Shown in pieces: positions 2 to 22,012 of a DNA stretch of 32,000 nt (its first letter is position 1; the number at the start of each line of letters is the position of its first letter). The notes beneath the pieces were generated by a model. The model was not told the DNA's origin and ran no database searches. It saw only the letters and a list, made by a program, of their open reading frames with translations. The stretch comes from an uncultured bacterium (GTDB lineage: Bacteria > Auribacterota > JACPWU01), in the NCBI GenBank assembly GCA_964640155.1, contig CAZXEQ010000001.1, positions 30,001-62,000 of the forward strand, read 5' to 3'. The translations under genes were made by a program, and so were the position numbers.

Positions 2-3000
2 TCTGAACTGTTCTGGACGTGCATCAACCGATTCTGCTAGACGAACCCAAGAAGATAAAGCGCCTATATCCCGCGAAGAATCCAAATCTAAATGACCATA
101 CAGGACTTCCACAGCACTTCGAAAACGTTCAAGTTTATCTAACCAGGCACTTAGCTTTCTGGCTAAATCTTCAGGAGTATCATTGGCATCTTTTAAATAA
201 TTCAAAGCAAAGTTTGCCCAAGCCACATCCCGAGCCATCGAAACACTTTCTCTTGAGAGCTGCATAACAGCATTTGCCTGAGCAATATTTCCCAATGCTC
301 TCCAATAAGCAAGACGAGCCGTATCTCTTACTCTTATCTGCCCATGATAAAAACGATTTACGCGTGAATGAATAGCGCTTACCACCTCTCCTAAAGTCTC
401 GATTGAAACCCCCTGAGGGCGAGATCGTACATACGTATCCCAAACCGTCAAGTACCCCTGAGAAGCATAATTCTCATTAAATTGACGTGATGCTCCTGTC
501 ACTTGACTATAAAAACCAGCCAAAGGACCTCTCATCGCATTTCGACCTTGACTTCTCTCCCCATCTGAAACCTTTTGAAATTCTGCATTAAAAACTCTTT
601 GTCTAAAAAGTCTGTCATGATAAGCCAATCTTCTTAAATCTCTTATCGTTGGATCAACGTTTGCAGCTTCCGCAGGTTGTAAAACGGGAGAAAGCATCGC
701 CCCTTGAGGAAAACCTTCTGTCACAGAACGTCTATGAGCAACATTTGAAATTCCCCTAAAAAGAAGGGAATCATGTTCAATGTGCTCTCGTAAAGCAGCA
801 TCTGCCATAGGATGCTGCATTAAAAAAAGAGCATAATAACTAGCAAGACCTAAAAACTTTAAATTAACTCCCGCCCCAATATCACGATTAGAAAAAAGAT
901 CTAGAGTTTCCATAGGAATTAAGGCTTCAAAAGAATTGGCCAAAAAATCTGGAAGAGGACTCCCTGATAACGCCCCACTTCTTAAAAGAGGAATGACCCG
1001 ATGAATATTTGAAAAATAGGTTTGCATATCAGACGCAGACATATTCCTAGACCGAGCATAGCGATCAAAAACAAGAGTCCAATCATTTAAATTCATGACT
1101 CTGCCATCACCCACAGCAGCTCCTAAACTATTCAAAACCCCAGAAACCGCACCTCCTGAAACTAAAGATGGAGAACCTCTCATATGTCGAACATGAGGTC
1201 TTAAGCTAAAATCCCTTAAAAGACTTAACAAAGATCTTACTTCTGTGCGTGTCGCAGCTTGTCGACGTGCATAATCACGCTCTAGTTCTGCCAATCTTCT
1301 TTCTCGAATTCTTGAATCATCTTCTCTTCTTGCTTCTCGTTCATGCCATTCATCTTCAATAGCGCGTTCTCTGGCCGCTTCTCTAGATCTCCATCGTTCA
1401 ACAGACAAAGCACGATCCGAACGTCGTCGCTCAGCATCTTGTCGTGCTAATTCATTATGTTGTTCAACATTCCAAAAGGGAAAAGCATGACCATCCCATC
1501 CCGTACCAGATCTTGCTGTCAAATCGACTCTTTCATAATCCTCCTCAGGAACAACAACCGCTTGAGGAAGCTGAAGACGTGATTGACTGAGAGCCTCTAA
1601 AATTTGTCGTCCTCTTTCTAAAGTAGTTTGTCCCGATCTTAGATGAAGGTGAGGATTTGGACGAGGGGCAGGAATTTCAACATGTTGATCTCGTCGAACT
1701 TGTGCCCTTAAAACAGGATCTAATGCTTGACCCAATTCAGCCATTGTATGAATTGGATTTCTCCGATTTGGAAGATGAGTCTGTACTTGCGCTCTAAAAG
1801 CCGGGTCGGAAAGCGTATGATCTACATAATCTCCAGGATTTGCTCCTAAAGCTTGAGCTAAAGCGAGCAAACCCATCGCATCATTCAATGCAACTGTTCT
1901 TCCAACAACTTCACTTCTTTCTAAATTGACTGCATCTACCCAGCCCAAATTAGTATGATAAGCAGGCAGCTGCGCTTGAGTTGCCCCATGATCCGCTGTG
2001 GCCTCTTGAGCCTCATGACCAGGATAACGTACTCTTAAAGTCTGAAGACTTGTAGTTACATCCGTATATGAAGCAACAAAAGGTAAAGCTAAAAATGCAG
2101 CATGGGGTGTAAAAACAGTTTCATAAGAAGGATCCCAATTACGAACCATTCTTAATTCGCGAAGACCTAATTCACCTGCATAATCTCCACGATTATTAAC
2201 AAGAGATGCAGAATGTGCTGCCATCATTCCTTGACGTAAACTGACTTGATGTAAAATTAGAAAAATATCGTTCTTCTTGCTGGTGTAAGCTGCACCCAAC
2301 TGCAGGTCATCAGCGGAATCTAAAGTTCGAACCGAATCTAAAACACGCCCATCGTTATCAATATAGTGGCCATTATCTCTTAAATCTGCCCAGAGACCCT
2401 GTGTATTCAAACCTAATCCTTCAAAACTAGATGGATCCAATCTACTTCCTCTATCCACTCTCAACTGAGCTTCTCCCTGTAGCAAACTACGATACGCAGA
2501 CGCATTTTCATCTACATTTGTAAGTAAAGGAGGAATACCTATTTGAAAACTTGCACCAAAAAAACTCATTGGAGCAACTAAACCAGGCCGTGGATTATAA
2601 ACTCGTACACGCAAATCTGTAAGTCGCTCCATAGGCATTTCCCCCATCGCCACACCTAATAGTGTCGTCAAAGTAGCTTCACTTCCAAACTCACCCCCGA
2701 AAAGATTAAGATTAATATGATTAATCGGAGATGATGCAGGAGCTCCCAAAAATCGAAAAGCCCTTTGAGGAGGAAAAGGTTGACTCAAATCATCTAATGC
2801 TGGCGTCAAAACTAAAGCTAAATACTGACTATTAGGATCTTGAGGATCATGATACTGTCGATCTAAAAAGACACTCAAATCCTGAGGGGGTTGAATGACT
2901 CTGCCCTCTCGGGTCTCTCCAAAAATAATTCTATCAATGATCTGTAAAATAGCACGACCCTGCAAACTTTGATCACGCAGATAAGCACCTCTGAGCGCAA

Positions 3001-6000
3001 TTAAGGAACCTCTTAAATTCCCATTATCAATGCTAGAAATCCAGCTTTCAGCAGGTTGCAATCTCTGCTGAGGAAGTCTAGAATTTTTTGGGAAATATGC
3101 CGCATAGAAGAATCCTCTATGTCTTGGGAGTGTAGATAAGGTTTGTAAGGTACGTAGAGTAAGATCTCTAGCAAGATCTAAATCTAAAACTCCTAAATCA
3201 CGTAATACCGCAATACTGACAAGATAAAAACCAATATTGGTAATACGATGAATAGGGTTGGTTGGAACCAGGCCATTACCTCGAATAGCTGCGGTGTCAT
3301 AAATCAAACCTGTCTCAGGGTCAACTTTGCGACGCATGGACTCCCATGTGGACAACAAAGAATTTCCTAGTTCTCTTTCGTCCGGTTGTAAACCGATTGA
3401 CGCTCCAGTCACACGCGGCCGAACTGCAGTGCCAGAGTCAGGCCTAGGTTGAGCATAAGCTGTAGGAATAAGAACATCACTGATTCTATCCCATAAAGTA
3501 GGCGAAGTCGTCGTACTCATTCTTACTCCCCATCCACCTGAAGGGAGTGGAGACAGAGAAACGGGGAAACCTCCTTGAACTCTTGTGCCACTTGTTTCTG
3601 TACTAGAATCAGATAGTAGTGCGCCTAAAGAAACTCTCTCTGTTGTTAAAGGAGCGATTGAAGGCAATGTGTTTGATTCAGCTCTTGGTAAAGCTGTTTG
3701 GGATGACAACATTAAATTCCAACGCGTTTGAAAAGCAGCAATATCCTCTGGAGAGAATTGAGTTTCTTCAAAAATTTGAATAATTTGTCTTCTAATGTCT
3801 ACTAATTCATCTTCAGAAAAATGTCTTCCTCTTAAGCTTTCTAATAATGAATTTAATCTTGTTCTAGCACGCATTAACCGGACCAACGTTTCTTGAGATG
3901 GTGCAGGCGTTATTTCAGGTCCATGTGCTGCTTGCTGAGAAGTCGTAGCTCTTTGTCTTGCAGCTTCTCGCCTTTGCCTTCTTAAATCTGTCCTCAAAGA
4001 TCGAATACTCTCATCTAATTTTGCCAATTCTCCTTGCAATAAAACTTGCTCTTGACGGATTTCATCCAAAGACCTTTCAGAAGTTGAAGTCGCGACATTC
4101 CCTGATCGTTCTTCAGCATGCTCAACCAGTCTTTCCAAAGAAATACCCAAAGGTAAAAGATATGCTTTTAAAACCTCTCTTTTTTGAGAAAAATCAGAAA
4201 GAGCAGAAAGAAAAACACTTAATGCTTCTTGATATCGAGTATAAGTCATAATCCATTGTCCTGCTCCAACGGTACTTGTTGTTTCTTCCGCTGTATAGGA
4301 TTCTCGAAATTGTCTCCAAGCTGTTTTCTGAGCTTCAAAATATCTTTGAGCTTCAATCACCCTTAAAACAGAATCTTGAAAATCTTGAATTTTTGCTTCC
4401 AATTCAAGCCCCATCTCCCGACGACGTTCACGTAACTCAGATTCAGCTCCCGCTAAACGAATACGCGCAATTCTTCTTTCAGAAGAAATACGGCCTCCTT
4501 CATACAAGGCAAAAGTCCATTCAGCTCCTGCCCCTACGGCCCCTGACAAAAGTTCTAGCCCCGACCCTCTCAAATTCAAACTTCCTAAATGGTGAAAAAT
4601 TGGAGTTGTAACATCAAATTCTGCGCCTTCCACATGATGAACTTCCGGTAATACGGCACGGTTCAAAGGACTGTTCGCAGCATTTGGATTTGAAAAGAGA
4701 CTTCTAAGTCGTGCATCTACCCATGAATCAAAACCAACTTGATCTCTTAACCATGCTGGCACTTGATCATTTAATTGTGCTGTAGGAGGGAAATCCACAT
4801 CTCTTCCCAACAAGACTCTCAAGCGTTCTTCAGCCATGGCCACAGGATGCTCAGCCAATAAAAGTCTCTGAGTTGCTTCTAATCGCTGAGCATCGTTAGA
4901 GTCTCTCAATGTTGTTGATCCTGAAACAGCAGCTTGTTCAGTATATCTTCTTTGAACTGTGCTTATGAATTCTTGAACAGTCGCTTGATCAGAGCGACGA
5001 ATTTCTTCAACTCTTCTTGCTAAAAGCAAATCATGATAAGCCTGCATTAACTCAAGTGTTGCGCGAACTCTTTCTCTTTGAAAAGAAGCTTGAGCCTCAT
5101 CTAAACGATGCTGAGCTGCTCCAATAGAACGAAAATTTGACCATTGAAGATTCAATGTCGCTTCACCCGTGACAGCTTGATTAAATCCTGCACGAAGATA
5201 ATCCTGTGCGGGAGCAGGAGAAATGGATCCAATATTTGTACTGATTAAACCTGCAGAAGTCCTCATAGTTAAAGGTTCTCTAACTTGATTTGTTACAGCA
5301 TCAATTACGCCCTGTCTTGCTTCTTCAACACGGTGATGAGCCCTCTGAATTGAAGGTAAAGCATTGGGTCCTTCAGGATCCAATGCCATTGCCAAAACTC
5401 TCTCAAAACTCAAAATCTGTGGAGAACGAGTAGGCGTAGGTCTTTGTACATTTACTCTTAATGCTTCTTGCCAATCTCTAGAATAATGACTTCTCTCTTC
5501 ACCATAATGCATTAATATTCTCACAGCTGATCGAAAACTTCGTACAGCTCTATCTAATCTTTGTAAGGCTTCTACTTCTTGAACCCGATCTTCCAAGACT
5601 GTTCCTTCATGAACATTGGGGTCCATATTTGCAACAACATTAGGATCGAACTCTTGACCTGTCATGCGCAAGTGAAGCTGTAAAGCTTGTCGAATTCTCA
5701 CAAGATCCGCTTGAATTTCTCTAATCTGATTCAAACTTTGTTCATAATTTCTATGAGCAGCCGATAAATCTTGTTCCTTTTGCCGTAAATACACAGCTCT
5801 TTCTGTTTGGGCATCTTCCATGGCTTGTTCGGCCCGACGCTGAACAGCATCTCTTGAACTTCCTCCAAATCGACCTGTTAAAGTGAGCATCACTTCCCAT
5901 CCTGGAATTGGAGAAGGCGTAGGAGAGGGTGGCTGAAGAGAAAGAGGATTTTCAGGATTTGATGCTAAAACCCGATCAGGTCGGTCTACAAACCCACGTC

Positions 6001-9000
6001 CTCTTAAATCAAATTCAATGGGACGAAGACTCCCCGCAACGGATGACAAGCGACGATTTCTTGCAACATCAGCCTCTAAAACCCTTAAACGCGCTGAACC
6101 ATCATAACCTGTCGATAATTCAAGTAAGTCTCCTGATGGAATTTGTAATGCATTAATCATCTCATCGGTGACTTGACCCATCCCCATCAAATGAAGAATT
6201 TCTATTTTGATTTGACGCAATTGCGTCTCTGCTCGGGTCTTTTCAGCTTCTGCTCGTCTTAAAGCCTGCTCTTGCCCTTGTATGACCAGACTTCCATATA
6301 AATTCGTATGGGCATTCATATACTGAACAAAGGGTCGTCTAAAATTGATTTCTTGATCTAACTTTGCTATATCTTCCTGTAAATCTTGATACCTTAAAAA
6401 TTTATCCGATAAAGATTCAATCACATGGCTGCGCTCTTGATCAATTTGAGCTCGAATATGCGACTCTAAAACTTCAGCGGCATCAATTTCTTCTTGAGTA
6501 GCACCTAACCAAGGAAGCATCCCTGTAATAGCAACACCCGCACCTAAATTAGAAAAAATGCCTTGTTCAGAAAAAGTCCGATCAGGAGAGAAAAAATCAT
6601 GTCCAGAATCTGCAGCATGAAAAGTGTAGTAAACTTGAGCTCTCGCAAAAATACTCAACTGTGGCCTACGGCTAGCACTAGCTAAAGCTCGTCTAGCTTG
6701 TGCCAAACGAAGTTCTGCGTTTAATCTTTGAATATTTGGATTATTTTGAACCGCTCGAGCTAAAATATCATTGCGCTGAATACCAGATAAGGCTTCTGGC
6801 GTCAACCGTTGCGTTTGTTGAACTGTTTGAATTTCCGCTTCCATCCATTGCGCCCTAGCTTGAGTGTATCCCTGTAAAGCTTCTACTTGCCTTCTTCTCA
6901 CTTCCAAACGTTCTCGCATCGTTCCCAATCGAGCTGCCACATCGTCAGGAATAACTTCTGAGGTAGGAAGCTGCGGAATAGTTGCTAACATATTTAAAAC
7001 CGTCATACGATTTCGCCAATCCAATTCAAATTCCTCGCGATGAAATTGATTGGTTCTACGATCATTGTCTCTTGCTACCCTTAACAAACGACGCTGTTGT
7101 TCAACAACTTCTCTTGCTGCACCTGTATATCCTAAATTTGATAAAACATATCCAACTGATAAATCTGCTCCAAGCGTACCTGTCCATGCTCCTCCTACAT
7201 CAAATCGAGGATCAAAATTAATTCTCCTCATCCCTTCAACAATCACACTTGCATCAAACGTAAAACGATTACTTCGATCCATCACAGATCTTTGGGCTTG
7301 AAGAGCTCTGTCTCGAGCCGTATAAAGAAGTTCGGGATCAAGTCTGTGACTTCGAATTAAAGTTTCCTCCATAACCCCATTTACTTCGTTAATTACAGCC
7401 GTTGTAAAATCTGCTCCCTGCAAGCCTTGTATTCTTGTAACAAATTCAGGAGAAAAACCTCTCACATGAAGATTGCCTCGACGAGAAAAACCCATTTGCC
7501 GCGCTAATTCTGTCTGAGCACGATGTAAAACAGACTCAGCTTCTCTTAAAAAAACACCGGCCTGTCCTCGAGCCGCTTCAACATTACTAAACTCTGCATC
7601 AGATAAAGTTTGCCCCGTATGAAGAGCCTGAGCAGCATTGTATAAACCATTTACATCTCTTTGATATTCTCTAACCATCTCAACTTTTAATTGAGCCATT
7701 AACAAACTGACATAAGCTTGTACCGTATCCATCACCACTTGATGTCTATCTCTTTGAGCCATCTGACGAGCAACATCCCAATTCCTTAACGCAAAATGTG
7801 TAGCAGCGGCACGAACTGGATCAAACCGATAACCAAATCTTAAAACTGCCGAAACTTGCAACCAATTTAAAGGTTGTGCAAAAGATCCATCATCATCGGC
7901 ATGACCATAGAAAGTAAAATTTCGATAGTCTCCTCTTAGAATAAGATGAAGTCCTATTCCATTTGCCCCCTCTTGAAAATCATACATGGCTCTGGCAACA
8001 TCCGCTTCAGTTCTTGGAAGATGATCATGATGATTTAAAGCTTGTTCAATAGTCTGACGTAAATCCATTTCTGCAGGTGGAACGGGTTCTGGAAGAGCTC
8101 CTGTTTCAGTGGTAGGAGAAGTAGCTGCCTCGCGTGCCAGCATTTGTCCTCGATTTTCAGTCATCTTAGCTCTCAGAGTTCTTCTTCGTTCTGTGGCTTG
8201 ACCAAGATTTTGTCTCAAAGCTTGGATTGCTTCTGAACTCCCTGGTTCGAGAACAACAGAAGGCACGCCTGGTTTTTGCTCCACTGAAGAAGTTGTCGTA
8301 GTTTGAACGACCAAAGCACCATTTTGATTTGATGTTGTTGAAGTCTGTATGTCTGTGCCAACAGCCCTAGGAGTCAAAGCGGCAATTTGTTGATCCAATT
8401 GATGTTCGGCCTCCTCTAGAACTTGTACTACAGGAACAGAAGAAATAGGAGTCTCTGAAAAAAGAGTTGAAGAAGAATTATCAGGAAGAACTGTCACAAC
8501 AGGCCCTGGCGATGCCAATGGAGAATGAGAATCACCCAAAATCCCTGAACTTTCTGCTGCATGATAAGCAACCCCTCCTGCCATCACTGCAACACTGGCA
8601 TAACCTAAACCCTCCACACCTTTTAAAACTACACGCGTTGGAATAGAAAGTGCTAGAGGATTCCATGCTAGCTCTAACAATGCTCGATCTTCTTCACCCA
8701 ACTTCCCTTTATAATCCAAAAGATCTTCCGCTGTAATCTCTTCTTTTCTCTCAATCTTTTCTATCATTTCCCCTAAAACATCTCTCAAAGGACAAGCATG
8801 ATCTCTTAGAGCTTGATAAAGAACCCAAAGTCCTCCATGGGGATTCCGATCAAAATGCTGACGATGGGTCATCTCAGTCTTTAAAGTGTCCATATCGACA
8901 GGGCGAGATTGATGATATTGACCTAAAAGGGCATCAAAAACTTCTTGAGACATATCTGATCTAATTTGAAATGCTTTTGCCTGTCCTTTTACATCTACTT

Positions 9001-12000
9001 TTAAAATTGCAAAAGGTTTACCTTCATGATAAATCAATTGTACTTCTTCTCTTGCACTCACTACTTTCTCGTCTTCCAATCTTTCAGAAGACTCCACAGC
9101 TTCACCAATTAAATATTCCACCGGATCCAATTCTCTGAAATAAACAAGCCGTCCATGTACAAACTCACAAAAAAGACCCAATTCTGGATAAAATTTTGGA
9201 CCTGTAAAATCTTTTTTTGAAGCCTGAGGAAGATCAAAAACCTTTGCTGTTGTCTGATCATAAAATCTAACAGGATTACCCTTTTGATATTCCACACGGA
9301 CATTGACTTTTCGACGGGCACTGAGTAATTTCCCTTCTAAAAATTGAGCAACATAAGTCTCACTTTCCCATCGACCCGTAAAATTTTCATCGACAGGCTG
9401 AGGAATTGCTAAAGGGGCTGCTCCTTTCCCAAAAGGATCTACAAAATCATAAGCATACACAAAACCAGGTCGTTCTTTACTTTTTAGCTCTTGAACTTTT
9501 TCTGAAGTCATTACTCCTTTTTTTACCAATCGATCTAACGCTTCTGATGTGAAAAGTTCAAAATCATCTGCTGAAAAACCTGTAAAGTTGGCTGACAATT
9601 CAAAAGATTCAGGTCCAGGAATAGAATAGGCCGCTGAAGCATGGTCTCTTGCACTTAAAGAAACGCGTGAAAAACCAATTTCTTTTTTCCCCTCTCGATG
9701 GACAAATCGAACATCCTCTTTTCCTACCACATCATGAAGATCTAACCAATGACCTAATTGTTCTGGACGCAAACCTAAAGGTTTTAAACTGGAAACTCGA
9801 GCTAATTCTTCTTCAATGGCAGATGTTGCTTTTAATAATGCCTCTTTTAAATTATCCTCAAAATTTTCATCATCTAAACTTCCATAAGCCAAATTAATGA
9901 CAATTTTCTGCCCATCCCAAACAACCATTTCAGGTTTCTTTGCAAAATAGGCAGCAACTCCTTCTATTACTTTCCAAACAAGTCCTAAGGCAAATCCTAG
10001 CGTAATCGAAATAAAAGTTTTTGAAATAAACTTCCCAATCAAACTCAAAATAGAAAACGTCCAGCGGGCTGTAATTCCTTCAAGTTCCCTTATTCCCCAA
10101 ACCAAAGAAATCTCTTTCCTGAAACCCTGCCAAATAGAAGGACGAGTTTGATTGCTCTCCACTTTCAATTCAGGTTTATGAATCACAGCGACTCTCACTC
10201 TAGCGGCTTCTTGCATTTGGGCTAAAAATGGATATTGCGTCAAAAGTGTTTGACGCCACTGAACTAAACTCTGATGACCCGCTAACACCTCAGACCCTTC
10301 CATTAAAGTTTCCACACGTTCTAAATCTCCATCTGAAAACTTGCCTTCACCTTTTTGGGTAGGATCTACAAAAAGAATAACGGGAGGATATTCAACAGTC
10401 ACTTCCGGTCCTGCACGATGGGGATGAATCATTTCATCCAGCCAGGATTTTCTTTCGCTTTGAAAATTTCCGAACTTCTTAAAGAATAAGGCAAAGAAAA
10501 CAGCTACATCTTGTCCACGACCTGCCAAATCTGCCAAAACTTCCTGGGCAACACGCTTTTTCTCACCTATATTTGTAGAATGCGTCAAACAAGCAGCTAA
10601 ACGCTTCAACTGAAACTCATTCATCTCCACAAAACTTGCTTCTGGACTTAATTCTTCTGCTTTTTCAATCACTCCTACTTTTAAAATAATTCCCATCGGT
10701 TGGCCATATACAACCACAGGAATATAATAATCATCTCCTAATCTTTGAATTTTCTCTGAATCCACTTCCACGGCTGAAAGAGCATCAGAAAGTCTTTCTC
10801 TTATTGACGCAGCCTCTTCATCACTCAGAAGTCCTTCCCGGACGCGATTGAGCAAAAACCCATTTAAATGAGCTGTATGTTCTTTCGTATTACCCCGCTC
10901 CATTTCTCCAGCCTGCCCCTTTTTCCCTTCAGTAACCAATTTCGTTACTTGAGCACTCGCCAAAATTCTCATTAAACTCAAAGCTACACGGACGGAAACT
11001 TGCTGGGCTTCTGCTTTTGTTCCAGCCACTCTTCTAATCTCTGGATCTGCAATCTCTGCCAAAAAACTTGCTAATGCTGAGGGCAACATATTCAGCATCA
11101 AAGGGCCTAACTGATCGGAATTTCCACGATAAGCCACCAGTGGTATTTGCTTCGAACTCGTATCTGTTGAATCGGAAGGTTGAGAGAGAAGTTTCGATAA
11201 AGAAACTTTACCTTTTACTTCATTCTTCTTACTTAAAACTTTCATCTCTTGTTCCATCGAAGAAAGTTCATCATCCATAATGGAAAGATAAGGAGTTTTA
11301 AGCTTCAATTTGGTTACTTTTGGAGTAATAATCACATAAGAAATACCCTTTTCTTCTAACTGCTTTGCAATCCCCTCTGAATGAAATCCTCCTGCCACAA
11401 GCACAGCAACAGGACTCTTAGCTTCTTTCATGGACTCCAACATATTTTGAACCATCACCTTGTCACGCTCTTTAGCAAAATCATAAAATTGTTTTAAAGG
11501 TTGAATATTTTCATCTAAAAAATTGATATCTGGAACATCGAAAGTCCGATCTACACTTAAAGAAATTTCTTTCAATCGAACTAATAAGTTGGAGGGTTTT
11601 AATTTTTCTTCATTTTCGTAGTAGTAAGACAAACCTGAACGCAAAAGCTCTAAATGATAAAAATCGCGAAGAAGCTTTAATGATTTGCCAATCTCAAACA
11701 AATCTTTTTGTTTTGGATCTTTTAAATAGGCTGCCTGTAAATCTTTTAAAATTTGATCACATTCGCCAAATAAAGCCTCGCTATCAATTTCATTAAAAAT
11801 TTTCACCATTTCAATATAAGAAGAAAGATTAGGATAACTTTCTAAAGAAACTTGAGCCTTTAAAACAGCTTTTTCTAAAGAGCTATAAAATTCATATGCC
11901 TTTATTTTCTCCAAACGATAATAAAGCCCTTGGGTTAAAAGATCTGCGAACTCCTCTTTAGCAACCTTCTTAGAAAGAACATTCATTAAATCCTGTCGTT

Positions 12001-12853
12001 CTTGTTCTACTTTATTGATTTTGATTTTCTTCTCAAGCTCTTTGACATCCATCATCTTCTTGATATTCATGCTTCCAGAAATATTTGAAAGCCCGAGAGT
12101 CTTTACCTGAGCCAGAAGAAACTCAACATAAGCAGCAAATCCTATTTTATCCTGATTGTAGTCTTTCTCTTTTTTGAGAAGATTTTTAACTTCCGATGGA
12201 TAAATTTTATCTTCAAGAACTTTCACTTCATTTTCTAATTGAGTTAAAAGCCCATCTGCTTTTTCCTGAACGGACATAGATTTTTGGAAAGCAAGAAAGT
12301 TATTAAAATAAAGAGGAAGATTTTCAATACCTTTCATCAAAAGGGGCTTATCTTGAACAATCGAGAGATATTCAGCTCCCGTAATTTTCCCCTGTTGAAG
12401 CAAAAGTCGTGCAACTTGTTTACGAATTTCAACTTGAGGGAAAGCTGTGAATAGAGAAGTATCTACCAAACCAGAAGCAGCTTCTAAACCAATCAGTTTT
12501 AAACCATGATCAGAATGTTTTTTGAAAAATTCATTGAGAATTTTTGCAGAATTGGATTGAGCTTCGAAATTACAGTGAAGATCTTGAATGTGAATAATCA
12601 GGGGTTGATTTTGACCTTGAAACTTGGATTTTATAAACCCCAGACTGGGACTTACATGAAATTCGGATACGGTAGGAGAGCTGGATGATGATTTAGACTT
12701 TTGAACAGGTGATTCATTAATTTCCAAGCCTCTTGCAAAGGCAAAATCACTACACAAGAAGCTAAAAGCAACAAGAACTGAAGTAATTCGGATTCTTATC
12801 GAAAAACCGTTCTTTTTTGTAAAAAAATTCCGGGATTGATATTTCCTAACCAT
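2..12853 (-). CDS. Giant multidomain envelope protein; N-terminus complete, C-terminus beyond the window edge (at least 4,284 codons visible)
   Basis: I hand-translated the minus-strand frame (codon low coordinate = 2 mod 3) across all 214 sequence lines. The ATG is at 12853-12851, with GGGGAG 6 nt upstream and an in-frame upstream stop at 12884-12886. No stop codon occurs down to nt 2. The protein starts MVRKYQSRNFFTKKNGFSIRIRITSVLVAFSFLCSDFAFARGLE. A complete-ORF track would omit it because it has no stop in the window, and no other frame in 1-12853 holds a long ORF. Confidence 0.9.
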   Translation of the reverse strand, partial: MVRKYQSRNFFTKKNGFSIRIRITSVLVAFSFLCSDFAFARGLEINESPVQKSKSSSSSPTVSEFHVSPSLGFIKSKFQGQNQPLIIHIQDLHCNFEAQSNSAKILNEFFKKHSDHGLKLIGLEAASGLVDTSLFTAFPQVEIRKQVARLLLQQGKITGAEYLSIVQDKPLLMKGIENLPLYFNNFLAFQKSMSVQEKADGLLTQLENEVKVLEDKIYPSEVKNLLKKEKDYNQDKIGFAAYVEFLLAQVKTLGLSNISGSMNIKKMMDVKELEKKIKINKVEQERQDLMNVLSKKVAKEEFADLLTQGLYYRLEKIKAYEFYSSLEKAVLKAQVSLESYPNLSSYIEMVKIFNEIDSEALFGECDQILKDLQAAYLKDPKQKDLFEIGKSLKLLRDFYHLELLRSGLSYYYENEEKLKPSNLLVRLKEISLSVDRTFDVPDINFLDENIQPLKQFYDFAKERDKVMVQNMLESMKEAKSPVAVLVAGGFHSEGIAKQLEEKGISYVIITPKVTKLKLKTPYLSIMDDELSSMEQEMKVLSKKNEVKGKVSLSKLLSQPSDSTDTSSKQIPLVAYRGNSDQLGPLMLNMLPSALASFLAEIADPEIRRVAGTKAEAQQVSVRVALSLMRILASAQVTKLVTEGKKGQAGEMERGNTKEHTAHLNGFLLNRVREGLLSDEEAASIRERLSDALSAVEVDSEKIQRLGDDYYIPVVVYGQPMGIILKVGVIEKAEELSPEASFVEMNEFQLKRLAACLTHSTNIGEKKRVAQEVLADLAGRGQDVAVFFALFFKKFGNFQSERKSWLDEMIHPHRAGPEVTVEYPPVILFVDPTQKGEGKFSDGDLERVETLMEGSEVLAGHQSLVQWRQTLLTQYPFLAQMQEAARVRVAVIHKPELKVESNQTRPSIWQGFRKEISLVWGIRELEGITARWTFSILSLIGKFISKTFISITLGFALGLVWKVIEGVAAYFAKKPEMVVWDGQKIVINLAYGSLDDENFEDNLKEALLKATSAIEEELARVSSLKPLGLRPEQLGHWLDLHDVVGKEDVRFVHREGKKEIGFSRVSLSARDHASAAYSIPGPESFELSANFTGFSADDFELFTSEALDRLVKKGVMTSEKVQELKSKERPGFVYAYDFVDPFGKGAAPLAIPQPVDENFTGRWESETYVAQFLEGKLLSARRKVNVRVEYQKGNPVRFYDQTTAKVFDLPQASKKDFTGPKFYPELGLFCEFVHGRLVYFRELDPVEYLIGEAVESSERLEDEKVVSAREEVQLIYHEGKPFAILKVDVKGQAKAFQIRSDMSQEVFDALLGQYHQSRPVDMDTLKTEMTHRQHFDRNPHGGLWVLYQALRDHACPLRDVLGEMIEKIERKEEITAEDLLDYKGKLGEEDRALLELAWNPLALSIPTRVVLKGVEGLGYASVAVMAGGVAYHAAESSGILGDSHSPLASPGPVVTVLPDNSSSTLFSETPISSVPVVQVLEEAEHQLDQQIAALTPRAVGTDIQTSTTSNQNGALVVQTTTTSSVEQKPGVPSVVLEPGSSEAIQALRQNLGQATERRRTLRAKMTENRGQMLAREAATSPTTETGALPEPVPPAEMDLRQTIEQALNHHDHLPRTEADVARAMYDFQEGANGIGLHLILRGDYRNFTFYGHADDDGSFAQPLNWLQVSAVLRFGYRFDPVRAAATHFALRNWDVARQMAQRDRHQVVMDTVQAYVSLLMAQLKVEMVREYQRDVNGLYNAAQALHTGQTLSDAEFSNVEAARGQAGVFLREAESVLHRAQTELARQMGFSRRGNLHVRGFSPEFVTRIQGLQGADFTTAVINEVNGVMEETLIRSHRLDPELLYTARDRALQAQRSVMDRSNRFTFDASVIVEGMRRINFDPRFDVGGAWTGTLGADLSVGYVLSNLGYTGAAREVVEQQRRLLRVARDNDRRTNQFHREEFELDWRNRMTVLNMLATIPQLPTSEVIPDDVAARLGTMRERLEVRRRQVEALQGYTQARAQWMEAEIQTVQQTQRLTPEALSGIQRNDILARAVQNNPNIQRLNAELRLAQARRALASASRRPQLSIFARAQVYYTFHAADSGHDFFSPDRTFSEQGIFSNLGAGVAITGMLPWLGATQEEIDAAEVLESHIRAQIDQERSHVIESLSDKFLRYQDLQEDIAKLDQEINFRRPFVQYMNAHTNLYGSLVIQGQEQALRRAEAEKTRAETQLRQIKIEILHLMGMGQVTDEMINALQIPSGDLLELSTGYDGSARLRVLEADVARNRRLSSVAGSLRPIEFDLRGRGFVDRPDRVLASNPENPLSLQPPSPTPSPIPGWEVMLTLTGRFGGSSRDAVQRRAEQAMEDAQTERAVYLRQKEQDLSAAHRNYEQSLNQIREIQADLVRIRQALQLHLRMTGQEFDPNVVANMDPNVHEGTVLEDRVQEVEALQRLDRAVRSFRSAVRILMHYGEERSHYSRDWQEALRVNVQRPTPTRSPQILSFERVLAMALDPEGPNALPSIQRAHHRVEEARQGVIDAVTNQVREPLTMRTSAGLISTNIGSISPAPAQDYLRAGFNQAVTGEATLNLQWSNFRSIGAAQHRLDEAQASFQRERVRATLELMQAYHDLLLARRVEEIRRSDQATVQEFISTVQRRYTEQAAVSGSTTLRDSNDAQRLEATQRLLLAEHPVAMAEERLRVLLGRDVDFPPTAQLNDQVPAWLRDQVGFDSWVDARLRSLFSNPNAANSPLNRAVLPEVHHVEGAEFDVTTPIFHHLGSLNLRGSGLELLSGAVGAGAEWTFALYEGGRISSERRIARIRLAGAESELRERRREMGLELEAKIQDFQDSVLRVIEAQRYFEAQKTAWRQFRESYTAEETTSTVGAGQWIMTYTRYQEALSVFLSALSDFSQKREVLKAYLLPLGISLERLVEHAEERSGNVATSTSERSLDEIRQEQVLLQGELAKLDESIRSLRTDLRRQRREAARQRATTSQQAAHGPEITPAPSQETLVRLMRARTRLNSLLESLRGRHFSEDELVDIRRQIIQIFEETQFSPEDIAAFQTRWNLMLSSQTALPRAESNTLPSIAPLTTERVSLGALLSDSSTETSGTRVQGGFPVSLSPLPSGGWGVRMSTTTSPTLWDRISDVLIPTAYAQPRPDSGTAVRPRVTGASIGLQPDERELGNSLLSTWESMRRKVDPETGLIYDTAAIRGNGLVPTNPIHRITNIGFYLVSIAVLRDLGVLDLDLARDLTLRTLQTLSTLPRHRGFFYAAYFPKNSRLPQQRLQPAESWISSIDNGNLRGSLIALRGAYLRDQSLQGRAILQIIDRIIFGETREGRVIQPPQDLSVFLDRQYHDPQDPNSQYLALVLTPALDDLSQPFPPQRAFRFLGAPASSPINHINLNLFGGEFGSEATLTTLLGVAMGEMPMERLTDLRVRVYNPRPGLVAPMSFFGASFQIGIPPLLTNVDENASAYRSLLQGEAQLRVDRGSRLDPSSFEGLGLNTQGLWADLRDNGHYIDNDGRVLDSVRTLDSADDLQLGAAYTSKKNDIFLILHQVSLRQGMMAAHSASLVNNRGDYAGELGLRELRMVRNWDPSYETVFTPHAAFLALPFVASYTDVTTSLQTLRVRYPGHEAQEATADHGATQAQLPAYHTNLGWVDAVNLERSEVVGRTVALNDAMGLLALAQALGANPGDYVDHTLSDPAFRAQVQTHLPNRRNPIHTMAELGQALDPVLRAQVRRDQHVEIPAPRPNPHLHLRSGQTTLERGRQILEALSQSRLQLPQAVVVPEEDYERVDLTARSGTGWDGHAFPFWNVEQHNELARQDAERRRSDRALSVERWRSREAARERAIEDEWHEREARREDDSRIRERRLAELERDYARRQAATRTEVRSLLSLLRDFSLRPHVRHMRGSPSLVSGGAVSGVLNSLGAAVGDGRVMNLNDWTLVFDRYARSRNMSASDMQTYFSNIHRVIPLLRSGALSGSPLPDFLANSFEALIPMETLDLFSNRDIGAGVNLKFLGLASYYALFLMQHPMADAALREHIEHDSLLFRGISNVAHRRSVTEGFPQGAMLSPVLQPAEAANVDPTIRDLRRLAYHDRLFRQRVFNAEFQKVSDGERSQGRNAMRGPLAGFYSQVTGASRQFNENYASQGYLTVWDTYVRSRPQGVSIETLGEVVSAIHSRVNRFYHGQIRVRDTARLAYWRALGNIAQANAVMQLSRESVSMARDVAWANFALNYLKDANDTPEDLARKLSAWLDKLERFRSAVEVLYGHLDLDSSRDIGALSSWVRLAESVDARPEQFR
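1840..3340 (-). other. Glucoamylase-like (PF10091/DUF3131/GH144-type) (alpha/alpha)6 glycoside-hydrolase-like domain of the giant protein (aa about 3,170-3,670)
   Basis: Motifs TNPIHRITNIGFYLVSIAVLRDLGVLDLDLARDLTLRTLQTLSTLPRHRGFFYAAY...WISSIDNGNLRGSLIALRGAY and YHTNLGWVDAVNLERSEVVGRTVALNDAMGLLALAQAL. They resemble the GFFYhW...S.iD...L and GyGf.DafN...iDqGp.l motifs of that family. Recalled from memory, not searched. Confidence 0.45.
4142..8068 (-). other. Six OEP (TolC-type) repeats forming three TolC-protomer-sized units inside the giant protein (aa about 1,596-2,904)
   Basis: Three consecutive units of about 425-435 aa (about nt 8068-6800, 6799-5500 and 5499-4142). Each opens with a TolC-like N-terminal motif: MDLRQTIEQALNHHDHLP; LSGIQRNDILARAVQNNPNIQRLNAELRLAQARRAL; ILSFERVLAMALDPEGPNALPSIQRAHHRVEEARQ. 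Each also contains OEP signatures such as ATLNLQWSNFRSIGAAQHRLDEAQASFQRERVRATLELMQAYHDLLLARRVEEIRRS and AEWTFALYEGGRISSERRIARIRLAGAESELRERRRE. Confidence 0.75.
9941..10063 (-). other. Internal hydrophobic transmembrane segment(s) of the giant protein (aa about 931-971)
   Basis: Translation WTFSILSLIGKFISKTFISITLGFALGLVWKVIEGVAAYFA, flanked by charged residues. Confidence 0.5.
11300..12680 (-). other. N-terminal module of the giant protein, paralogous to the neighbouring 1,063-aa protein; ChaN/TraB/GumN/Tiki-like His motifs
   Basis: Giant PLIIHIQDLHCNFEAQSNSAKILNEF...LKLIGLEAASG aligns with neighbour TVLLVQDAHCNFEAQRNTSEILNSL...IPLIGLEGAQG. Giant FYDFAKERDKVMVQNMLESMKEAKSPVAVLVAGGFHSEGIAKQLEEKGISYVIITPKV aligns with neighbour FYEFALQRDEAMLNASLQGMEEKKVSLMMLVTGGFHTQGIAQALKEKDISFFIITPKV. 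The spacing between the two His motifs is about 390-400 aa in both proteins. The superfamily assignment is an inference from this motif pattern. Confidence 0.6.
12731..12853 (-). other. Predicted Sec signal peptide of the giant protein (aa 1-41)
   Basis: Basic n-region (RKYQSRNFFTKKNGFSIRIR), hydrophobic core ITSVLVAFSFLC and an AFA-R cleavage-like site. Assigned by eye only. Confidence 0.55.
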
Positions 12854-12904
12854 TTGCAACTCCCCGCCCCCCAGTTTATATAACTACTTCTCTCTCTTTA
12901 GTTA

Positions 12905-17661: not shown

Positions 17662-18471
17662 TCAGGATTCTTGTATTGCTTGTCCAATAGCTTTAATTCT
17701 TGCTTCATCGAAATTTACAGGACCATTCCAAGATGCATGATAGGCACTCCAATTCGCTCTGTATTTTAAATAAAGTTTTGCTTGTTTATGAAGGGTTTCT
17801 GGAGATGCTTCAATCAGAGGAGAACAATCATTCGTTGAAATTTTATTTGAATCTTTCCAAACATTCTTATCATTTGCTTCTTCACACAAATGTTTCTCCT
17901 GATATTGAGCTTTGCTTTTCAAATTTTGACCCCACCAACTATCACCAATACAAATCACCTTTGCCCCAGGCCATATTTCATACCCGTACTTCATCCATTC
18001 TTCACATTTGCGTCTATCTCCTCCTCTACTTCCTGGCTCTGTCACAGGCTGAAAAATAATCAACTGAGTGCCCACTTTATCTTTAAGCTCATCTACAAGT
18101 TTCTTAAAATCAGAAGTAGATCGAGCCCTTACTTTTTTCGTATTCCAATTCACGACAATGATCTCAACAGTAATCCCTTTATCCCTGAATGGCTTTACCC
18201 AATTTGCTATAAAATCTGTATCTTTCTTAAAATCAATTTCAATAATCGTGTAATTTAATCCATGATTTGCTAAAGCATTTGCAAAAGCATTTGGATCTTG
18301 GCTTGCCCAATCCCACGGAGTAGCATAACCTATAAAATGCCCTATAGGTTTTTTAGGAAGAATCGTTACAGTAGAAATATGAGACGATCTCTTTTCAGCA
18401 TGACAACTCATCGATAAAAGGCAAAGAGAAGCTAAAGAAATAATAATCAGAAAAATTTTGAAACGTTTCAT
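17662..18471 (-). CDS. Secreted hypothetical protein (269 aa); possible TIM-barrel glycosidase-like fold (weak)
   Basis: ORF track entry. Signal peptide MKRFKIFLIIISLASLCLLSMSCHA. The FQPVTEPGS segment is reminiscent of the GH5-type NEP motif, and that is the only functional hint. Confidence 0.65.
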   Translation of the reverse strand: MKRFKIFLIIISLASLCLLSMSCHAEKRSSHISTVTILPKKPIGHFIGYATPWDWASQDPNAFANALANHGLNYTIIEIDFKKDTDFIANWVKPFRDKGITVEIIVVNWNTKKVRARSTSDFKKLVDELKDKVGTQLIIFQPVTEPGSRGGDRRKCEEWMKYGYEIWPGAKVICIGDSWWGQNLKSKAQYQEKHLCEEANDKNVWKDSNKISTNDCSPLIEASPETLHKQAKLYLKYRANWSAYHASWNGPVNFDEARIKAIGQAIQES

Positions 18472-18480
18472 ATGACTCTT

Positions 18481-18619
18481 GCGTGCCGGCCCCGATATTT
18501 TTCGGGGGGCCGACTTACATCGGCCTTGAGCCAGTCACTCCTCCTAGTAGTCGAATATCAGCCACTGGCTGATATGCATTCTTAATCAAATCTTCTGACC
18601 AATGGCCTTTAAGAAGTCA
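18481..18619 (-). ncRNA. tRNA-trailing structured element E1 (between the tRNA-Glu 3' end and the 269-aa gene start); same family as E2 and E3
   Basis: Shares the family core with E2 and E3. Conserved hairpin atatcagcc 18555-18563 / ggctgatat 18567-18575, flanked by tagtcg and gcat. Hairpin ccccga 18490-18495 / tcgggg 18502-18507. Left end gcgtgcc. GC-rich island within AT-rich spacer. The strand is assumed from the tRNA orientation. Confidence 0.5.
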
Positions 18620-18692
18620 CGGCCCCAACGGGATTCGAACCCGTGTCTCAGCCTTGAGAGGGCTACGTCCTAGGCCTCTAGACGATGGGGCC
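18620..18692 (-). tRNA. tRNA-Glu (anticodon CUC)
   Basis: The reverse complement folds as a cloverleaf: GGCCCCA TC GTCT AGAGGCCTA GGAC G TAGCC CTCTCAA GGCTG AGAC ACGGG TTCGAAT CCCGT TGGGGCC G. 73 nt; no encoded CCA. Confidence 0.9.
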
Positions 18693-18724
18693 AAAAAAAT
18701 CATTTTGAAAATTAAAATTTTTGG

Positions 18725-18972
18725 CTGCCGGACTAGGATTCGGCGCCTGCGCGATTCGGTTATTCACCTTTGGTAAAACCCTCGGTTGATTTTCAACCTC
18801 GGACACCTCACGCTTCGGTCGGCCACTCGGTTCTCCTAATAGTCGCAAATCATGCCCCGCATGATTTGCATCATTTCTTAGTCGAACCTCTCTTCGAATC
18901 CTAGTTTACTACTAAACTATTCCTGATGAAATTTATAGGCTTTGATACTTTTACATCTCTTACTGCGAAACT
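18725..18972 (-). mobile_element. tRNA-trailing element E2, bounded by an 18-nt duplication of the tRNA-Gln T-loop-to-3'-end; candidate miniature integrative element or structured RNA
   Basis: Direct repeat ctgccggactaggattcg at 18725-18742 and 18973-18990, the second copy lying inside tRNA-Gln. Identity breaks inside the T-loop and is followed by gcgcc. Internal inverted copy cgaatcctagt 18895-18905 pairs with 18732-18742. Conserved hairpin caaatcatg 18846-18854 / catgatttg 18860-18868. Hairpin ggttga/tcaacc 18784-18798. Confidence 0.6.
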
Positions 18973-19043
18973 CTGCCGGACTAGGATTCGAACCTAGATA
19001 CACAGATCCAGAGTCTGCGGTCCTACCATTAGACGATCCGGCA
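18973..19043 (-). tRNA. tRNA-Gln (anticodon CUG)
   Basis: The reverse complement is TGCCGGA TC GTCT AATGGTA GGAC C GCAGA CTCTGGA TCTGT GTAT CTAGG TTCGAAT CCTAG TCCGGCA G. U1-A72 and G73 are typical of bacterial tRNA-Gln. 71 nt; no encoded CCA. Confidence 0.88.
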
Positions 19044-21693: not shown

Positions 21694-21938
21694 AAATTTT
21701 GCCCCCGAGACGAGTCGGCGCCTTTGGGTCTCGGGCTACCCCGATATGTACATCGGGGACCTTCGGACGCCTCGCCCTCCGGTCGGCCAGCCGCCCTTCA
21801 CAGCAGTCGCCAATCATCCTGTGGATGATTGGCATTATAGAGTTTCAGGGCTCCTATTCGACTCGTCAAAAAGACAGATTTGACACGAGTCCAAAGATAT
21901 ATTACCTATACGCACTGCACGTGATAAACAAAAAATTT
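21694..21938 (-). mobile_element. tRNA-trailing element E3, bounded by a 24-nt duplication of the tRNA-Arg T-loop-to-3'-end plus trailer; candidate miniature integrative element or structured RNA
   Basis: Direct repeat aaattttgcccccgagacgagtcg at 21694-21717 and 21933-21956, the second copy overlapping the tRNA-Arg 3' end. Identity breaks in the T-loop and is followed by gcgcc, as in E2. Internal inverted copy cgactcgtc 21859-21867 pairs with 21709-21717. Conserved hairpin ccaatcatcc 21810-21819 / ggatgattgg 21823-21832. Hairpin ccccgat/atcgggg 21739-21758. Confidence 0.6.
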
Positions 21939-22012
21939 TGCCCCCGAGACGAGTCGAACGTCCGACCTAGGCTTTAGGAAAGCCTCGCTCTATCCTACTG
22001 AGCTACGGGGGC
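21939..22012 (-). tRNA. tRNA-Arg (anticodon CCU)
   Basis: The reverse complement is GCCCCCG TA GCTC AGTAGGATA GAGC G AGGCT TTCCTAA AGCCT AGGTC GGACG TTCGACT CGTCT CGGGGGC A. 74 nt; no encoded CCA. Confidence 0.9.

Follow-up and report, generated by a model that had tools for sequence, protein, structure and literature searches.

We analysed a 32,000-nt stretch of DNA (contig CAZXEQ010000001.1, positions 30,001 to 62,000; hereafter the window) from an uncultured bacterium of the Auribacterota. The window contains three tRNA genes, all on the minus strand, and each has a member of a single family of short elements behind it: E2 behind tRNA-Gln(CUG), E3 behind tRNA-Arg(CCU) and E1, which is decayed, behind tRNA-Glu(CUC). 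E2 and its family are the subject of this report. The tRNA-Gln(CUG) gene lies at 18972/3-19043/4 (ARAGORN; Rfam RF00005, 58.4 bits); it has no encoded CCA, and AGT comes next. The tRNA-Glu(CUC) gene (18619-18693) lies 31 nt downstream of E2. Coordinates refer to the window unless a locus is named, and all tRNA and element features of the window given below are on the minus strand.

E2 is delimited by an 18-nt direct repeat, CTGCCGGACTAGGATTCG, whose copies at 18725-18742 and 18973-18990 are 100% identical; the estimated chance of an exact 18-mer repeat within about 900 nt is about 6e-6. In the orientation of the tRNA it reads CGAATCCTAGTCCGGCAG, which runs from C56 of the T-loop through the 3' strands of the T-stem and the acceptor stem to the discriminator G73. 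The proximal copy (18973-18990) is thus C56-G73 of the functional tRNA-Gln. The distal copy (18725-18742) repeats this segment in sense orientation and is followed by CCA. Identity between the copies ends between T55 and C56. Directly 5' of the distal copy lies the hexamer AGGCGC (18743-18748), found in 6/6 intact distinct copies of the family; joined to C56 it gives GGCGCC, and on the plus strand it appears as gcgcc at 18743-18747.

The 230-nt insert between the repeat copies (18743-18972) begins at the tRNA end with a 67-nt spacer (18906-18972). Next comes an antisense segment, anti-T (ACTAGGATTCGAA on the tRNA strand, 18893-18905), complementary to positions 54-66 of tRNA-Gln. Its match to the T-arm of the tRNA itself is 13/13 (18980-18992), and that of its 18895-18905 part to the distal copy is 11/11 (18732-18742). 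Further along the tRNA strand are the two strands of helix 2, P2 (GGTTC at 18884-18888, GAACC at 18829-18833), which enclose the P3 hairpin GCAAATCATGC GGG GCATGATTTGC (18845-18869, an 11-12 bp stem with a 3-nt loop). These are followed by the block TGGCCGACCGrAG (18813-18825), invariant in all intact copies, and by an extra hairpin, GGTTGA AAA TCAACC (18784-18798), in a variable segment. A sequence-only reading of the region had described the 18-nt repeat, its break in the T-loop, the adjoining gcgcc, the 230-nt insert and the inverted copy of the T-stem, and the repeat search reproduced all of these.

E3 (21697-21938) is a full member of the same family, behind tRNA-Arg(CCU) (21939-22012). 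Its repeat, 21697-21717 and 21936-21956, spans C56-A73 plus flanking A/T, and gcgcc again comes next. The counterparts of the E2 parts are the anti-T GACGAGTCGAA (21857-21867), P3 (21809-21833), the invariant block (within 21763-21788), AGGCGC (21718-21723) and the distal copy of C56-A73 (21700-21717). Two further target-related segments of E3 are missing from its ortholog in a related genome, described below: a near-copy of the T-loop and T-stem in sense orientation in the spacer (21882-21892, GGACTCGTGTC) and a segment at 21728-21736, GCCCGAGAC, that could pair with the T-stem and acceptor strand of the copy. We considered an acceptor-like stem for the copied 3' tail as a family feature and rejected it, since the complementary segment occurs in E3 only and in neither the ortholog nor the other copies.

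E1 (18472-18618), the degenerate member behind tRNA-Glu, retains the P3 hairpin and the CGACTACTAGGAG motif and has lost the anti-T, AGGCGC and the distal copy; it scores 26.2 bits with a covariance model of the family. It abuts the start codon, at 18471, of a gene for a 269-aa protein with no Pfam domain. The loci around homologs of this protein (L037-L040), which were sought for further copies of the element, come from other samples; they are clusters of many small open reading frames (ORFs) and hold no tRNAs, unlike the context in the window.

Members in other genomes were sought with a degenerate core pattern of 18 specified bases, scanned against one genome for each of 185,579 species. 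This gave 17 matches, about the number estimated by chance, and only two of them adjoin tRNA genes. Both are in one metagenome-assembled genome (MAG), Candidatus Auribacterota SZ_szas25bin.51, where one copy lies behind tRNA-Thr(GGU) just ahead of tuf and the other behind tRNA-Ser(GCU). Reading the locus further revealed a third copy behind tRNA-Thr(UGU). A scan of JGI metagenomes gave two matches, both at chance level; the patterns used for species genomes and metagenomes were stringent, so that divergent members would be missed. Further relatives were collected through homologs of the neighbouring proteins. One of these loci, L021, whose porin is 83% identical to that of the window, carries an ortholog of E3, R21, behind tRNA-Arg(CCU), and in 97%-identity relatives of SZ_szas25bin.51 the tRNA-Thr(UGU) copy is nearly unchanged. 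The closest named homologs of the window porin belong to "Chlamydiae bacterium" MAGs, Candidatus Theseobacter exili and Candidatus Aureabacteria, so the window probably stems from this same broad lineage.

Five copies thus lie outside the window: three in one MAG, one in a near-identical relative and one that is orthologous to E3. The family comprises seven intact copies at six tRNA loci, together with the decayed E1, and the intact copies stand behind tRNA-Gln, tRNA-Arg(CCU) (two orthologs), tRNA-Thr(GGU), tRNA-Thr(UGU) (two orthologs) and tRNA-Ser(GCU). Elements occupy 3/3 tRNA loci in the window and 3/6 in two MAG loci. A hidden Markov model (HMM) built from the three MAG copies alone recovers E2 (E=9e-18), E3 (E=4e-16) and E1 (E=3e-5) in the 32-kb window and no other element-sized site; its only further match is the palindromic hairpin of E2 on the opposite strand (E=0.0067). 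The covariance model finds eight full copies at 1e-28 to 4e-38. The proposal that E2 and E3 belong to one family, each fitted to its own tRNA, is therefore borne out by the core similarity, tested with a model from another genome, and by the architecture and covarying core shared by seven intact copies.

Every intact copy lies on the tRNA strand, directly downstream of its tRNA, and the order of parts is constant: tRNA, spacer, anti-T, P2 enclosing P3, UGGCCGACCGrAG, a variable linker, AGGCGC and the sense copy of positions 56-73. Total size is about 185-250 nt, of which about 130 nt form the core. The spacer is conserved in length (58-75 nt) and unconserved in sequence, even among copies in one genome. 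The MAG copies have a short variable linker. In the copies of the window and of L021 it is 40-70 nt longer, and these long forms only (E2, E3 and R21) have the extra hairpin. The anti-T is the complement of positions 54 to 62-66 of the copy's own tRNA and always has GAA at its end. The repeat always spans 56-73, with an extra 0-7 nt in some copies (+6 in E3, +7 in the tRNA-Ser copy A14, +4 in L035).

In each intact copy both tRNA-derived segments, antisense and sense, fit the tRNA in front of them. The anti-T and distal copy are ACTAGGATTCGAA and CGAATCCTAGTCCGGCAG for tRNA-Gln, GACGAGTCGAA and CGACTCGTCTCGGGGGCA for tRNA-Arg, GGAATCGAA and CGATTCCCGTTCTCGGCT for tRNA-Thr(GGU), GGATTTGAA and CAAATCCCATCACCAGCT for tRNA-Thr(UGU), and GGGATTCGAA and CGAATCCCC...TCTCCGA for tRNA-Ser. 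The alignment of copies that had been suggested as a check of the match between tRNA-derived ends and adjacent tRNAs hence gives the same answer in every intact copy. The element cores cluster by genome and not by tRNA target: those of the MAG are all short forms, those of the window and L021 long ones. This pattern implies that the target has been switched while the core was kept, and that both segments were precisely replaced each time.

The helices of the family, P1 to P3, carry compensatory changes, and P2 and P3 are the covarying helices of the core. In a covariance-model alignment of seven members, which is fitted to the model and thus biased towards structure, 94.8% of the alignment cells in P1-P3 are paired and 12/28 pairs have changed on both sides. 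None of 500 shuffles reached so high a value, and slid controls gave 25-41%. Helix 1, formed by the anti-T and the T-arm copy, has 9-13 bp in every intact member and is 100% paired. Helix 2 differs in sequence among copies and keeps its pairing (GGTTC/GAACC in E2, GCCCT/AGGGC in E3, GCTCCGAC/GTCGGAGC in copy A5b and GTCCCGAC/GTCGGGAC in R21). Helix 3, the P3 hairpin, is 100% paired, with three pairs changed on both sides. The G-U pairs of the helices fall on the tRNA strand. A palindrome bound by protein would not retain compensatory changes, and we therefore read the element as a folded single strand. As a separate matter, P3 can be read as an 11-codon ORF (MQIMQCMICDC*), poorly spaced at about 13-15 nt after AGGAGG. 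We rejected a small protein: the stop is lost in E3 and A5b, and the compensatory changes in the hairpin are non-synonymous on both sides.

When the whole tRNA and element are folded together, the minimum-energy structure pairs the anti-T with the T-loop and T-stem of its own tRNA, and the distal copy closes the 5' acceptor strand. In its predicted topology this refolded transcript resembles a tRNA that is interrupted by the element between U55 and C56. Two transcripts were compared with shuffled sequences (z = -4.7 for E2 and -4.0 for copy A5a). In constrained folds the refolded form is favoured over the normal tRNA with anti-T/distal-copy pairing by 7-12.5 kcal/mol in 5/5 members; three members adopt it as their minimum without any constraint, and in a fourth it lies at most 0.2 kcal/mol from the minimum. 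These are nearest-neighbour predictions, which take no account of tertiary contacts in the tRNA, of base modification or of folding during transcription, and they describe a capacity of the transcript and not its behaviour.

Comparison of orthologous loci shows that the element comes and goes. Syntenic relatives that share the gene neighbourhood of the window (sigma70, hpt, tRNA-Arg, TPR, porin, tRNA-Gln, tRNA-Glu) have no elements. Over all loci compared, the empty sites are in L025, L022, L033 and L036, and the filled ones in the window, L021, L005, L034 and L035. In L025 no element follows a tRNA-Gln identical to that of the window; an unrelated palindromic repeat stands between it and tRNA-Glu. 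In L036, whose RmuC is 84% identical to that of the MAG, 42 nt separate tRNA-Thr(UGU) from rmuC. The corresponding MAG locus, L005, has a 186-nt block, from spacer to distal copy, after tRNA-Thr(UGU), and 41 nt remain before rmuC. The block is thus gained or lost as a unit, with the tRNA untouched.

Between E3 and its ortholog, the spacer (46% identical), the variable linker (38%) and the downstream flank (49%) are near random. The core is retained at 73%, the anti-T at 11/11 positions and AGGCGC with the distal copy at 24/24. Something therefore keeps both tRNA-matching segments in place, be it selection acting on the host, selection acting on the element or conversion templated by the tRNA.

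The tRNA loci of the relatives differ in other ways. A second repeat family, consisting of long imperfect palindromes of GGGTTAGGG/TAGGGTTTAGGG-type units, flanks their tRNA genes (L025 8705-8815 and 11450-11560; L036 1725-1830 and 1910-2055; L021 11535-11620), and in L025 one such repeat occupies the site that E2 has in the window. Immediately upstream of tRNA-Gln in the element-free L022, a 232-aa ORF (11487-12185) has a LAGLIDADG_3 domain (E=3.4e-10), which suggests that a homing-endonuclease-like gene may lie beside the same tRNA cluster. With the flanking genes as reference, the tRNA-Arg(CCU) gene of L022 (8805-8878) and L025 (8824-8898) is inverted with respect to that of the window and L021, and the tRNA-Gln/Glu pair is inverted in L033 (11381-11535). 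Small inversions of tRNA genes hence accompany presence and absence of the element. In L014 the tRNA-Arg(ACG) gene is directly followed by one for a tadA-like deaminase (4651-5261), an enzyme expected to act on this very tRNA, and tRNA-Ser with its element lies downstream of both.

Searches for known families and mobility genes were negative. At the gathering score, Rfam 15 reports only tRNAs in the three window elements and the MAG loci, so that the Rfam family which could have accounted for the likeness of E2 and E3 is absent. With E up to 10 it gives noise only, including for group I and group II intron, self-cleaving ribozyme, tmRNA, YrlA and retron msr models; a twister-sister match in the 3' part of E1 (18.8 bits, E=0.31) was judged to be chance. 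No similarity to any of 50,697 phage or 72,556 plasmid records was detected by blastn, and two IMG/VR pattern scans gave only chance matches in GC-rich contigs. Genes for an integrase, transposase, reverse transcriptase or nuclease are found neither in nor beside any copy, and no ORF is conserved in the insert. Downstream of the copies lie tRNA-Glu and genes for a TPR protein, tuf, rmuC and a methyltransferase, and the neighbours are housekeeping genes. Consensus scans for promoters and terminators on the tRNA strand showed no excess over shuffled expectation, and we rejected a promoter or terminator role; in the window the scans placed no terminator between tRNA and element.

We tentatively favour, at somewhat less than an even chance, the view that the E2 family consists of short, non-coding, non-autonomous insertion elements that are specific for the 3' end of tRNA genes and act as a single strand in folded form. 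In its geometry the direct repeat corresponds to site-specific integration in the T-loop or, equally, to an 18-nt staggered target duplication, and the tRNA stays intact because the block ends in a second copy of positions 56-73. Housekeeping neighbours without a mobility gene fit a non-autonomous element. In this reading the element would work as RNA read through from the tRNA promoter, or as single-stranded DNA, in which the anti-T pairs with a T-arm copy and so builds a mimic of the target duplex. This mimic would be used by a recombinase or nuclease whose gene lies elsewhere, for insertion between T55 and C56 or, in an equivalent formulation, after N73 with an 18-nt duplication. Alternatively, the pairing of anti-T and T-arm might direct an enzyme acting in trans to the 55|56 junction.

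Several observations weigh against such an element. We found neither a candidate for its recombinase, nuclease or reverse transcriptase nor an autonomous parent. Retargeting requires a concerted swap of two segments in opposite orientation, and we know of no recombinase that does this. The family was encountered in only a few related genomes: the stringent scans of 185,579 species genomes and JGI metagenomes yielded one MAG and otherwise chance matches. Where the sequence is unconstrained, the copies of a single genome have drifted apart, and no relationship is seen among their spacers, so there is no sign of a recent burst. The left boundary is also uncertain, as the spacer may belong to the native flank of the host; an 8-mer stands at the same offset in the empty site of L036 and in the spacer of A5b (p of about 0.05, at a divergence that saturates intergenic DNA). 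A host function would account equally well for the conservation seen between orthologous copies. Finally, the distal copy of tRNA-Ser (A14; L014 4308-4330, minus strand) has nine C where the tRNA has seven, hence two extra, and identity of its repeat runs 7 nt beyond the tRNA end (AGTTTAT). Slippage in the C run, an assembly error or gene conversion could account for these differences.

The main rival, which we consider possible though on the unlikely side, is a non-coding RNA kept by the host: a structured 3' trailer that is co-transcribed with the tRNA and acts on it, for example by controlling its folding, 3' processing or quality control. The anti-T would invade the T-arm, the distal copy would serve as an alternative 3' half of the acceptor stem, and both segments would be retained because the RNA must pair with its own tRNA. 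Such a trailer explains the perfect conservation of the anti-T and the 18-nt copy between orthologs whose flanks are near random, and it explains the predicted refolding, although the refolding calculated from nearest-neighbour energies may never occur in the cell. The invariable position directly downstream on the tRNA strand with no terminator found between, the covarying helices with G-U pairs on the sense strand and the high frequency of the element at tRNA loci in the window and the MAG all point the same way. A host RNA does not explain why the element is dispensable, as it is in close relatives with identical or near-identical tRNAs and in the decay of E1, nor its spread to six tRNA species, since independent origin behind six tRNAs with templated copies is unexpected. 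Insertion and RNA function need not exclude each other. Both had been offered as options by the sequence-only reading, and each has gained ground: the mobile mini-element from presence and absence at orthologous loci, and the co-transcribed RNA from compensatory changes and predicted refolding. The tRNA-like terminus proposed for that RNA does not hold structurally. Within the element, the anti-T is the pairing partner of the copied T-stem strand, whereas nothing pairs with the acceptor strand of the copy.

Two further readings involve the refolded precursor. A guide-bearing selfish RNA or DNA of a new kind, which we regard as improbable, would use its sense and antisense T-arm copies to refold the pre-tRNA into an intron-in-T-loop form, and a small new catalytic or protein-recruiting core would splice, excise or re-insert it at 55|56, with the guides rewritten from the target at each move. 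An intron-like, self-processing RNA in the T-loop seems highly unlikely to us. Here exon 1 would be positions 1-55, the putative intron would run from the proximal C56 to AGGCGC, and exon 2 would be the distal 56-73. The anti-T would act as an internal guide, first on the 5' junction and then on the identical 3' exon, and the core would be a new small ribozyme. The predicted favoured fold has exactly this topology; the anti-T, as the complement of 54-66, covers the 55|56 junction and can pair with either copy; invariant nucleotides stand near both junctions (GAA after the anti-T, AGGCGC before C56); and the length, 186-248 nt, falls within the range of the smallest self-splicing introns. The details of such an intron fit poorly, as the putative 5' splice site has no U-G wobble (U55 faces A), there is no terminal G (C precedes the distal copy), and two conserved helices are too few for a group I core. 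No Rfam intron or self-cleaving ribozyme model matches apart from the chance twister-sister hit, and splicing is not required because the tRNA is already complete. Decayed integrase islands, reduced to abutting attL and attR remnants with the shared core as the attP arms of one island family, are very unlikely too, even though a direct repeat that begins in the T-loop and reaches the 3' end of the tRNA is reportedly the classical signature of tyrosine-integrase integration and about 230-250 nt is close to the size of a minimal lambda-type attP. All seven intact copies are equally gene-free and similar in size, which independent decay would not yield, and no locus has an integrase remnant. The spacer, which would be the P' side, is unconserved, whereas arm-type sites would be conserved; compensatory changes that preserve hairpins are unexpected for protein-binding arm sites; and ordinary attP structure leaves the antisense target copy unexplained. 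Uniform gene-free architecture and compensatory changes effectively exclude independent decay of islands, in agreement with the initial argument that E2 and E3 are not decayed, unrelated islands.

The E2 family lies outside every described family, and gene-less integrative elements come closest. With tRNA-targeting tyrosine-integrase islands and phages, and with cis-mobilizable elements (CIMEs), it shares a place behind an intact tRNA, a direct repeat from T-loop to discriminator (C56-N73 in 7/7 intact copies) and presence or absence among relatives at filled and empty sites. Unlike them it is only about 185-250 nt long, has no internal integrase gene or any other and occupies at least six tRNA species with one family, and it has a covarying hairpin core, an internal antisense copy of the target and an unconserved spacer on the tRNA side. 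The antisense target copy and the covarying core are what is new.

For mechanism, the closest analogies would be the CTX phage attP, the integron attC, group I and II introns and the IS110 bridge RNA. As in the CTX attP(+), used by XerCD, and in attC, inverted site copies can pair in a single strand to mimic a target duplex, and secondary structure is more conserved than sequence. The target of the E2 family, in contrast, is the tRNA T-arm, and it has no dif-like or R'/R'' (GTTRRRY) boxes: the T-loop GTTCGAA/GTTCGAC does not fit GTTRRRY, and the distal junction GGCGC|C has no TT. Like group I/II guides, the IS110 bridge RNA and the IS200/605 omega RNA, it has segments complementary or identical to the insertion site, and a scaffold is kept beside an 18-nt or so target-derived 3' segment while targets vary. 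In contrast to these guide-bearing systems, it has no adjacent gene for a DEDD recombinase, TnpB/IscB or reverse transcriptase, no Rfam match and no group I/II core motifs, and its sense and antisense segments cover the same positions, 56-66, and not adjacent half-sites. The absence of an adjacent reverse-transcriptase gene also sets it apart from retron non-coding RNAs. Bacterial MITEs (miniature inverted-repeat transposable elements) are likewise short, non-coding, multi-copy, hairpin-forming and intergenic. The inverted repeats of the E2 family, anti-T and T-copy, vary from copy to copy and match the local tRNA, whereas those of MITEs are shared transposase-binding ends; insertion is strictly specific for the tRNA 3' end and for strand, the left end (the spacer) is unconserved and no parent insertion sequence is known. 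At least one defining feature fails in each comparison, and we conclude that E2 is not an integrase island, MITE, attC site, group I intron, bridge or omega RNA, or retron.

Away from the elements, the minus strand of the window has a stop-free frame of at least 4,294 codons at 2-12883, which runs off the start of the window and represents the gene of a giant protein.

The 3' ends of tRNA genes are classic landing pads of bacterial mobile DNA, and to our knowledge the occupants described so far bring their own integrase. A gene-less, structured element that stands behind many tRNA species in a genome, each time with sense and antisense copies of its target, implies either a so far undescribed form of templated retargeting or a so far undescribed tRNA-linked RNA function. 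If the element is mobile, it points to programmable, possibly nucleic-acid-guided recognition of insertion sites. As a host RNA it would amount to a trailer that acts in cis and, by prediction, competes with the folding of its own tRNA, for which we know of no described counterpart. The family comes from a phylum that, as far as we know, has no cultured members, and its core of about 130 nt offers a compact, testable system.

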